IMG/VR virus record: IMGVR_UViG_2548876964_000015
Span: 1-35,062 of that record
Direction: 5' to 3' (one strand)
Origin: a virus
Lineage: Duplodnaviria; Heunggongvirae; Uroviricota; Caudoviricetes
DNA: 35,062 nucleotides
In this document: positions 20,923-25,288 of the stretch, piece after piece
Layout: every line of letters starts with the position of its first letter
Position numbering within the stretch: position 1 is the stretch's first letter
The notes under the pieces: generated by a model
Databases searched by the model: none
The model's input: the letters and a program-made list of their open reading frames with translations, nothing else
What the model was told of the DNA's origin: nothing
Program-made: the position numbers and the translations under genes

Positions 20923-23653
<2,731 letters not shown>

Positions 23654-24985
23654 CACCCTCCACGCCCTGACGGGCGTGGATTCCTGCTACGTTCAGGCTG
23701 TCGCCTGAATCATTTCGGTGGGTTCCTGCTTCAACGGGCGGCCTGACTGCACCATCCCTCCACAGGCAAGTACGGCGTGCCCCGCCGCTAAAATGTTACG
23801 AGCGCCGTTTACATCGGCGTTCGCTGTATATCCACATACCTGGCATCTGAATTTACTTTGTGACAGGCGATTTTCTTTCGCGGTATGACCACAGCACGCG
23901 CAACGCTGGCTTGTGTACGCTGGCGGCACTGCCAGTACCTGACCGCCATGCCAGAGCTGCTTATACTCAAGCTGGCGGCGCATTTCATACCAGCCCTGAT
24001 CCAGTATCGAACGGTTTAAACCTGATTTTGCCCGGACATTGCGACCCGGCTGACTTATCGTACCCGCCGCTGACTTTGACATGTGTTTAACCTTCAAATC
24101 CTCAATGACAATCATTGCGTGGTTTTTGCTGATGATCGTTGTGACTTTATGAAGGTAGTCTCTGCGGATATTTGCGATACGGGAGTGCAGTTGCTGTATT
24201 TTGCGTTTCTGCTTCTGCCAGTTGTTGCTGAATCTGACCTTGCGGCTTAACTGGCGCTGAAGTCTCGCCAGCTTTTTCTGGTTTTTCTGGAAACTGTTTA
24301 CAGGCTCAAAGACTGTGCCATCTGACAGCGTGGCGAGCCTGGCCACGCCAGCATCCAGTCCGACCATTGATGCTGAAGGGTGAACAGGAGTGGATACTTC
24401 ACTTTCTGTCTGAATACTGATGTACCATTTACCGCAGGACTGGCTGACAGTGACATTTTTCACAATCCCCGTGACCTGCCGGCTGTTACGGTAGCGCATC
24501 CAGCCAAGTTTCGGCAGAAAAATACGGCTGTTTTCCTGGTCGAGCTTAACACCCTGCGGGTAGCGGAATGCATCATTCTGTCCCCGCTTTTTGAATCGGG
24601 GAAAAGCCGCCCGCTTCTGGAAGAAATTTTTGTAGGCCCGCTCAAGGTCTTTCAGTGACTGCTGCAATGGCTGTGAGGGAGAATCTTTAAGCCATTCGGT
24701 TTCAGTGTCTTTTTTCCACTCAACCAACCAGGAAGCCATTTTCGTGTAAGGGATGTATTTATTCCCGGCCTCATAATTCTCATTCTGAAGTGCCAGTGCA
24801 CGATTGAAAACGAAACGACAAGCTCCGGCAAAGAGCCTCATTTGACGCTCCTGTTGACCACCGGGTCTTAACTGGAATTTAAATGCTTGTAGTCGCTTCA
24901 TCCCACTATTTTAAACAAAAACAGTTAGGTGGAAAACCACGCCTTATATCCCCTCCCTGAAGGACGGGATTTTACGGCGCACCGG
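23654..24985 (-). mobile_element. IS200/IS605-family element carrying tnpB only (IS609-like), inserted right after the pro stop
   Basis: Subterminal hairpin CCACGCCC-TGAC-GGGCGTGG at 23660-23679 on the tnpB 3-prime side; no Y1 transposase (tnpA) ORF. The far boundary is approximate. Confidence 0.7.
23693..24901 (-). CDS. tnpB: TnpB (RNA-guided endonuclease, IS200/IS605 accessory protein)
   Basis: 402 aa, [22 protein letters not shown]...; C-terminal zinc-finger CxxC...CxxC and RuvC-like motifs; near-identical in my memory to E. coli K-12 IS609 TnpB (insQ/ydcM). Confidence 0.9.
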
Positions 24986-24990
24986 ATAAC

Positions 24991-25022
24991 CACCAAAAAT
25001 AACCCCGGCGGCTGCCGGGGTT
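24991..25022 (-). terminator. Rho-independent terminator of the lyz operon
   Basis: AACCCCGGC-GGCT-GCCGGGGTT, followed on the minus strand by ATTTTTGG. Confidence 0.55.
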
Positions 25023-25033
25023 ATCGTTAACTA

Positions 25034-25288
25034 TTATCGCCTTCGCCTGCGTGCCATATATTTGCGCACCGCGCGGCGTGGACAATCTGAAGCGGTTTCT
25101 TTCTGCTGCATCAATCTCGCAGCCATGCTCAAAAATGTCAGGCACAGCCGAAGCCCGGCATATAATAGCGGTTCCAGTGGCCACGTCTCATTGAGCACAT
25201 ATACCGCCATGAAAATCGAGTCGAAAACTATCGCCGCCAGCGATAACTTCATTGTCGAAAGTCGGCGGAGCTGCCGGAGTTTATTCAT
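25034..25288 (-). CDS. Small hydrophobic protein downstream of lyz (lysis accessory candidate)
   Basis: 84 aa; start overlaps the lyz stop; terminator directly after it. Confidence 0.4.
   Translation of the reverse strand: MNKLRQLRRLSTMKLSLAAIVFDSIFMAVYVLNETWPLEPLLYAGLRLCLTFLSMAARLMQQKETASDCPRRAVRKYMARRRRR

Follow-up and report, generated by a model that had tools for sequence, protein, structure and literature searches.

The window, by which is meant the whole 35,062-nt stretch of DNA analysed here, comes from a P1-like phage-plasmid: its portal, pro, lydE/lydD/lyz and ssb genes follow the P1 order at 98% identity. Between the convergent pro gene and the terminator of the lyz operon, where the first-pass annotation had also placed it, lies a complete, non-autonomous IS609-type element with a solo tnpB gene (Table 1). 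The terminator was taken from sequence and fold, the promoter/terminator consensus scan having left its hairpin unlisted; the 50-nt stretch that contains it (24986-25035) folds with a dG of -22 kcal/mol, and the hairpin lies 11 nt upstream of the TTAT target on the strand of the element. The insertion is an already annotated, ordinary mobile element of the IS200/IS605 family with known biology, and in RefSeq its identical copies, which occur on at least ten plasmids, NZ_AP018809.1 among them, carry the label "RNA-guided endonuclease InsQ/TnpB family protein".

Table 1. Coordinates of the IS609-type element, its parts and the neighbouring genes (window positions)
Feature	Position	Strand	Details and basis
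pro (head processing)	22634..23653	+	last residue K to N, stop from element
Predicted 16-nt guide TTAAACGGGTTGATTG	23634..23649	-	reverse complement of pro 3' end; end of conservation
Complete non-autonomous IS609-type element, 1336 bp	23650..24985	-	blastn vs P1 NC_005856
Predicted omegaRNA scaffold, ~147 nt	23650..23796	-	last ~100 nt of tnpB plus right end (RE); RNAalifold
RE subterminal hairpin, CCACGCCC-GTCA-GGGCGTGG	23660..23679	-	sequence, fold
tnpB, 402 aa	23693..24901	-	RuvC D183/E267/D363; zinc finger C334/C337/C353/C356
Putative promoter, TTTCCA-16-TAAAAT	24908..24935	-	directly upstream of tnpB ATG; consensus scan
Left end (LE)	24927..24985	-	internal AAAA 24970-24973, imperfect hairpin ~24949-24969; IS609 match, fold
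lydE (putative antiholin)	24972..25184	-	C-terminal FKRID to SGAP plus stop within LE
Target and putative TAM tetranucleotide TTAT	24986..24989	-	directly 5' of LE on element strand (+ strand ATAA); LE junctions
lyz-lydD-lydE terminator hairpin, then TTATTTTT	25001..25022	-	sequence and fold

The boundaries of the element were set by blastn alignment with the empty site of P1 (NC_005856), in which window position 23649 corresponds to P1 locus position 1750 and window position 24986 to P1 locus position 1751. Both junctions are unambiguous, the bases on either side differing from those of any alternative placement, and comparison with P1 showed no target-site duplication at 23650-24985. The first-pass annotation had suggested a search of related P1-like genomes for an empty site, and such sites were found in P1 and its relatives; in P1 the site reads CCGTTTAA followed by ATAACC, with the insertion point between the two. 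The right boundary given earlier, 24985, is exact, whereas the left one, 23654, was 4 nt off and has to be moved to 23650. LE and RE each occur once in the window. The element lacks terminal inverted repeats and has at both ends subterminal imperfect hairpins with TCAGGG-type loops.

The insertion had been described as lying precisely after the pro stop codon. Instead, it falls inside the last sense codon of pro, between its second and third base (AA/A TAA), and at the same time within lydE, which in P1 converges on pro with an overlap of 21 bp that contains the insertion point. The stop codon of pro is now the element's own: P1 ends AAA TAA (...NPFK, stop) and the window AAT TGA (...NPFN, stop), where the T at 23650 and the TGA at 23651-23653 come from the conserved RE end, being TCAA in reverse complement. 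The earlier observation that a hairpin begins 7 nt after this TGA is correct (it begins at 23660), with the TGA itself counted as element sequence. Both pro and lydE appear to survive the insertion nearly unaltered, with trivial changes at their C-termini, because the ends of the element supply replacement stop codons.

Comparison with an IS609 reference, as the first-pass annotation had advised, made the ancestry of the element clear. Positions 1-59 of the element, i.e., LE, are 93.2% identical to positions 1-59 of the IS609 of E. coli K-12 (insQ/yncK locus, NC_000913.3 1503161-1504908), and positions 86-1336, which hold tnpB and RE, are 93.4% identical over 1251 bp to its positions 498-1748, so that 438 bp with tnpA in IS609 are represented here by 26 nt. 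The two elements also share the length of TnpB (402 aa), a TTAT next to the insertion, an RE ending in GTCAA, and the habit of supplying through RE the stop codon of a convergent neighbour (ydcO in K-12). They differ in size (1748 bp versus 1336 bp here), in location (chromosome versus P1-like phage-plasmid) and in the start codon of tnpB (GTG versus ATG). In K-12, tnpA (yncK) is a pseudogene divergent from insQ. Assignment to the IS609 group of the IS200/IS605 family is based on the hairpins, the duplication-free insertion, the tetranucleotide target, the relation between target and LE described below, and sequence similarity, TnpA itself being absent from the element.

The absence of tnpA was both claimed and presupposed by the first-pass annotation, for which an intact tnpA nearby would have been adverse. 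A tblastn search of the whole 35-kb window with an intact IS609 TnpA as query found no tnpA (best E 1.4; positive control E 7e-84). The same 1336-bp solo form with intact ends was also present at unrelated sites, in two P1-like viral contigs (L093 and L094) and in a Citrobacter chromosome (L006), and the 26-nt junction with its conserved TAAAAT is common to these copies. Since the same architecture occurs at several unrelated sites, the solo form has been mobilised, and it appears to be an established, mobilisable lineage rather than the product of a local deletion. In fact, a solo state is the usual one, accounting for about 75% of tnpB genes (bioRxiv 10.1101/2023.03.14.532601), and the lack of tnpA is no peculiarity of this element. 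A helper TnpA acting in trans is plausible: of 5426 complete E. coli genomes, 4994 contain IS609 tnpA DNA, and in E. coli O157:H7 ATCC 43890 the gene is intact (WP_000604943.1). Full-length 1748-bp IS609-type copies were also seen in IMG/VR contigs; one of them (L110) shares the LE flank CTCTATTTAT with two others (L111 and L112) and differs from them in the RE flank, which suggests that copies have recombined with each other or that the DNA at the element has been rearranged.

The 402-aa TnpB reported in the first pass is borne out by an intact open reading frame, by the Pfam domains HTH_OrfB_IS605 (PF12323), OrfB_IS605 (PF01385) and Cas12f1-like_TNB (PF07282), by a score of 390 bits against the NCBIfam model guided_TnpB, "RNA-guided endonuclease TnpB" (NF040570; cut-off 100), and by an end-to-end alignment with the TnpB of ISDra2 (E 7e-52). 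The earlier reading depended on unmutated catalytic residues; D183, E267 and D363 match those of ISDra2 and are intact. The likeness to the ISDra2 TnpB-omegaRNA complex (PDB 8bf8/8exa/8h1j) takes in the catalytic triad, the zinc finger, a predicted scaffold that spans the 3' end of tnpB and RE, and a guide that would be drawn from the flank. Among solved structures, the top-scoring match was 9yyg, an 'AI-designed RNA-guided nuclease' (E 2e-61), which outranks ISDra2 TnpB. When tnpB was compared with seven relatives, dN/dS values were 0.07-0.15 and the D/E/D triad was kept in 7/7; by this measure, the tnpB family is under purifying selection. The TAAAAT of the promoter-like site upstream of the gene is retained in diverged solo copies. 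Literature searches for an experimental TAM or activity of IS609/InsQ gave only a mention of IS609 TnpB purified in a screen.

IS608 of Helicobacter pylori is the mechanistic model of the family. Its target is recognised through a tetranucleotide internal to LE, TTAC being paired with AAAG; at its RE, GAAT precedes the hairpin and a TCAA cleavage site follows 10 nt behind it. The present element resembles IS608 in its subterminal imperfect hairpins, its insertion 3' of a tetranucleotide target and its GAAT/TCAA arrangement at RE, where GAAT (23680-23683) precedes the hairpin and the 10 nt that follow it close with TCAA (23650-23653). It differs in that the last base of its target is T and tnpA is absent, and in the IS609 lineage tnpA and tnpB are divergent. 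The tetranucleotide adjoining LE was compared at 28 independent junctions, drawn from viral contigs and from genomes of Enterobacterales; it was TTAT in 17 cases and TTAC in 11, and TTAT also adjoins the K-12 IS609 and RCS47 copies. The tetranucleotide within LE covaried with the target: TTAT was accompanied by AAAA 17 times and TTAC by AAAG 10 times, with one exception (17/0/1/10; Fisher p 8e-7, for lineages that are not phylogenetically independent). This rule allows the TAM of IS609-type elements to be read from LE, and for the present copy, with its AAAA, it predicts TTAT. The use of TTAT as TAM by the nuclease is inferred from the target sites of the transposon. By comparison, the TAM of ISDra2 is TTGAT.

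A guide RNA derived from the 3' end of tnpB had been proposed in the first pass, and the scaffold that we predict does overlap this end and shows covariation. In an alignment of 51 distinct right-end regions (76-100% identity), RNAalifold gave 47 pairs, 12 of which had compensatory changes. Paired cells made up 97.7% of the total, compared with 36-46% in controls slid by 1-3 columns, and double-change cells numbered 95, compared with 4-18 in the slid controls; none of 500 shuffles reached the observed values. The scaffold sequence of the window had an MFE z-score of -3.27. A long-range helix between 23796-23791 and 23658-23653 brackets the ~147 nt. Since G-U pairs are frequent, the structure is assigned to the sense strand of tnpB, and most of its helices lie within coding sequence. 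Within the RE hairpin itself, 6 of the 9 pairs showed compensatory change, a pattern that could equally reflect a DNA hairpin recognised by TnpA. A search of Rfam gave no match of gathering-level significance; the sub-threshold matches at the scaffold, to HgcC (23640-23760), sot0042 and RAGATH-18, are hints and do not amount to family membership. Sense-overlapping RNAs at the 3' ends of tnpB genes, which have also been seen in data from E. coli K-12, have been linked to the HgcC/sot families (PMC4615843).

Sequence conservation among the 51 relatives ends right after GTCAA, beyond which the flanks are mutually unrelated. Because conservation ends exactly at RE, the predicted guide is 23649-23634, read from the DNA directly beyond the element. 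The earlier proposal that the flank at the 3' end of pro would serve as guide is therefore retained as a prediction, with the span corrected from 23635-23655 to 23634-23649. Its further claim, that this flank defines the target, is only part of the matter: the TTAT motif (24986-24989) would also be needed, and the element now separates it from the flank by 1.3 kb. TTAT followed by TTAAACGGGTTGATTG, i.e., the rejoined pro/lydE site, is predicted to be the target.

The placement of the element at the ends of genes looks exact, and a simple account of it can be given. On the complementary strand, the TTAY target becomes RTAA, with TAA in it, and the RE end becomes TTGA, with TGA in it. Since both complements hold stop codons, an antisense insertion at a gene that ends in NNA TAA trades one stop codon for another. 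Such swaps were found at pro in the window, at ddrA in RCS47-type phages (GC/A TAA to GCG TGA) and at ydcO in K-12 (L003 7906-9081). Among 73 independent RE flanks (L002-L136), 10 had an antisense frame that is open for at least 100 codons and ends at the TGA of RE; the comparison rate for such frames among RTAA sites at the same loci was 2.4%. Target specificity, together with the survival of harmless insertions, explains gene-end placement, and the apparent precision at pro follows from the choice of target.

The pro/lydE region was present in 492 E. coli records, in 446 of which the site was empty. About 22 of the ~490 P1-like E. coli plasmids (~5%) carried the element at at least 99% identity, ten of them at 100%, and all of these copies occupied one and the same site. 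This distribution fits one old insertion passed down by vertical descent, and nothing in it points to mobility at present. Filled and empty sites differ at position 9 of the predicted guide, where every filled site has G and nearly every empty site has A (41/42 in viral contigs and 308/309 in E. coli), the common empty-site allele being TTAAACGGATTGATTG. The G corresponds to window position 23641 (C on the plus strand; T in P1), 9 nt from the junction, and is a synonymous change in pro, AAT to AAC. With C at 23641 in every filled site examined, but in only ~1 of 300 empty ones, a flank polymorphism inside the predicted guide serves as a marker of the insertion lineage. Thus, the guide fits the element's own donor joint, which is what a retention model calls for, and mismatches most of the potential new P1 targets. 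The only empty site that matched the guide perfectly, that of pUTME-12-1, was considered as an excision product and rejected, its flanks (98.6% and 97.9% identity) being no closer to those of the window than are the flanks of P1; among the empty sites compared, none was found to be a recent excision product.

Taken together, the element is best read as a tnpA-less, non-autonomous derivative of IS609 with both ends, an intact tnpB and an overlapping predicted guide RNA, a reading to which we assign a probability of roughly 0.85. For its entry, expression, RNA ends, nuclease activity, use of the TAM and mobilisation in trans, we would propose the following course. An ancestor of the phage-plasmid would have been entered by single-strand 'peel-and-paste' transposition directly 3' of a minus-strand TTAT, in a reaction catalysed in trans by the IS609 TnpA that many E. 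coli chromosomes encode. The insertion would lie in the 21-bp pro/lydE overlap because the ...A TAA end of pro supplies, on its complementary strand, the TTAT that was used. Transcription of tnpB would start within LE, and the 3' part of the mRNA (~23796-23650) would fold into the omegaRNA scaffold and extend over ~16 nt of flanking sequence (23649-23634). Complexed with this RNA, TnpB would then cut DNA in which TTAT is followed by the guide sequence, which is the scarless joint left if TnpA excises the element, and repair from a sister copy would restore the element, as in the cut-and-copy model of retention. In a cell without TnpA, the element would merely be a stable passenger.

A less generous view is that the element is an inert relic, a fixed and immobile passenger whose TnpB and RNA are negligible or inconsequential and on which no cognate TnpA acts. 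The single site common to about 22 near-identical plasmids, for which a closely related empty site is absent, agrees with this view, as do the lack of tnpA in the window, the pseudogene in K-12 and the scarcity of IS609 tnpA DNA on plasmids, where it was found at 52 places compared with 546 for tnpB. We nevertheless regard it as unlikely, since the reading frame is intact, as are the catalytic residues, the two ends and the RNA structure, the family shows purifying selection, the solo architecture recurs at several independent sites, and intact IS609 tnpA exists in E. coli. The opposite view would make the element a weapon between phages or a homing drive, in which P1-like elements, whether incoming or co-resident, would be cleaved by TnpB-omegaRNA at their uninterrupted pro/lydE joint and so be excluded or turned into carriers. 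For this family, homing driven by TnpB is an established phenomenon (bioRxiv 10.1101/2023.03.14.532601), P1-like plasmids are frequent, with the 446 empty sites coming from complete E. coli genomes, and the empty site of P1 relatives offers TTAT beside a 15/16 match to the guide. However, the one mismatch is the A at position 9 that almost all empty sites carry, and a related TnpB is inactive with single mismatches at positions 5-12 (PMC12781874); moreover, carriage by ~5% of P1-like plasmids is unlike that of a successful drive. We think this role a remote prospect. The broader idea of a homing drive or exclusion nuclease directed at relatives met through superinfection and recombination, with the TAA to TGA swap allowing the element to sit harmlessly in phage DNA dense with genes, is likewise very improbable.

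Domestication of TnpB is known (PMC10705468), and this precedent is the sole ground for listing a further possibility, with nothing specific in its favour: that the protein is a nuclease-dead, TldR-like TnpB serving as RNA-guided repressor of a phage gene. The RuvC residues D183/E267/D363 and the zinc finger are intact, the gene lies between functional-looking transposon ends, and the guide is whatever flank happens to lie beyond RE. With the triad and both transposon ends in place, membership in the TldR class was rejected, and we give the idea next to no credence. On the preferred reading, that of a tnpA-less IS609 derivative, the significance of the element beyond correct annotation is small, IS609 and TnpB being already known. 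What is gained are the exact ends of the element, a TTAT target and putative TAM with the LE rule, an omegaRNA model with a predicted guide for E. coli IS609 TnpB, corrected C-termini of pro and lydE in this plasmid lineage, where the stop codons belong to the insertion sequence, and the simple account of gene-end placement given above.

A second solo element, at ddrA/ddrB, was seen in many P1-like phages and plasmids (RCS47, NC_042128, L002 3000-4334; also L087-L092, L095, L096, L098 and L100). It resembles the present one in its solo tnpB, its length of 1335 bp, the 95% identity of its tnpB, the adjoining TTAT and its insertion in the last sense codon of a gene; it differs in its site, in the first ~32 nt of LE, which have diverged, and in its RE end, TCAC instead of TCAA. 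Its tnpB reading frame is intact, and the TCAC at the RE cleavage site may have immobilised it. The RCS47-type copy was also considered as truncated at LE, an interpretation that we rejected: set against the P1 ddrA/ddrB junction, the 1335-bp insertion beside TTAT is complete, and its LE has diverged.

The interval between pro and lyz differs among P1-like plasmids in other ways as well. In some of them, such as p7_55_62A-3 of an O111:H8 E. coli (NZ_CP077509.1; L182 3755-5750), it is filled by genes annotated as antirepressor (KilAC-domain) and Icd-like, and lydD and lydE are not annotated there. The pro-lyz interval appears to vary independently of the insertion sequence.
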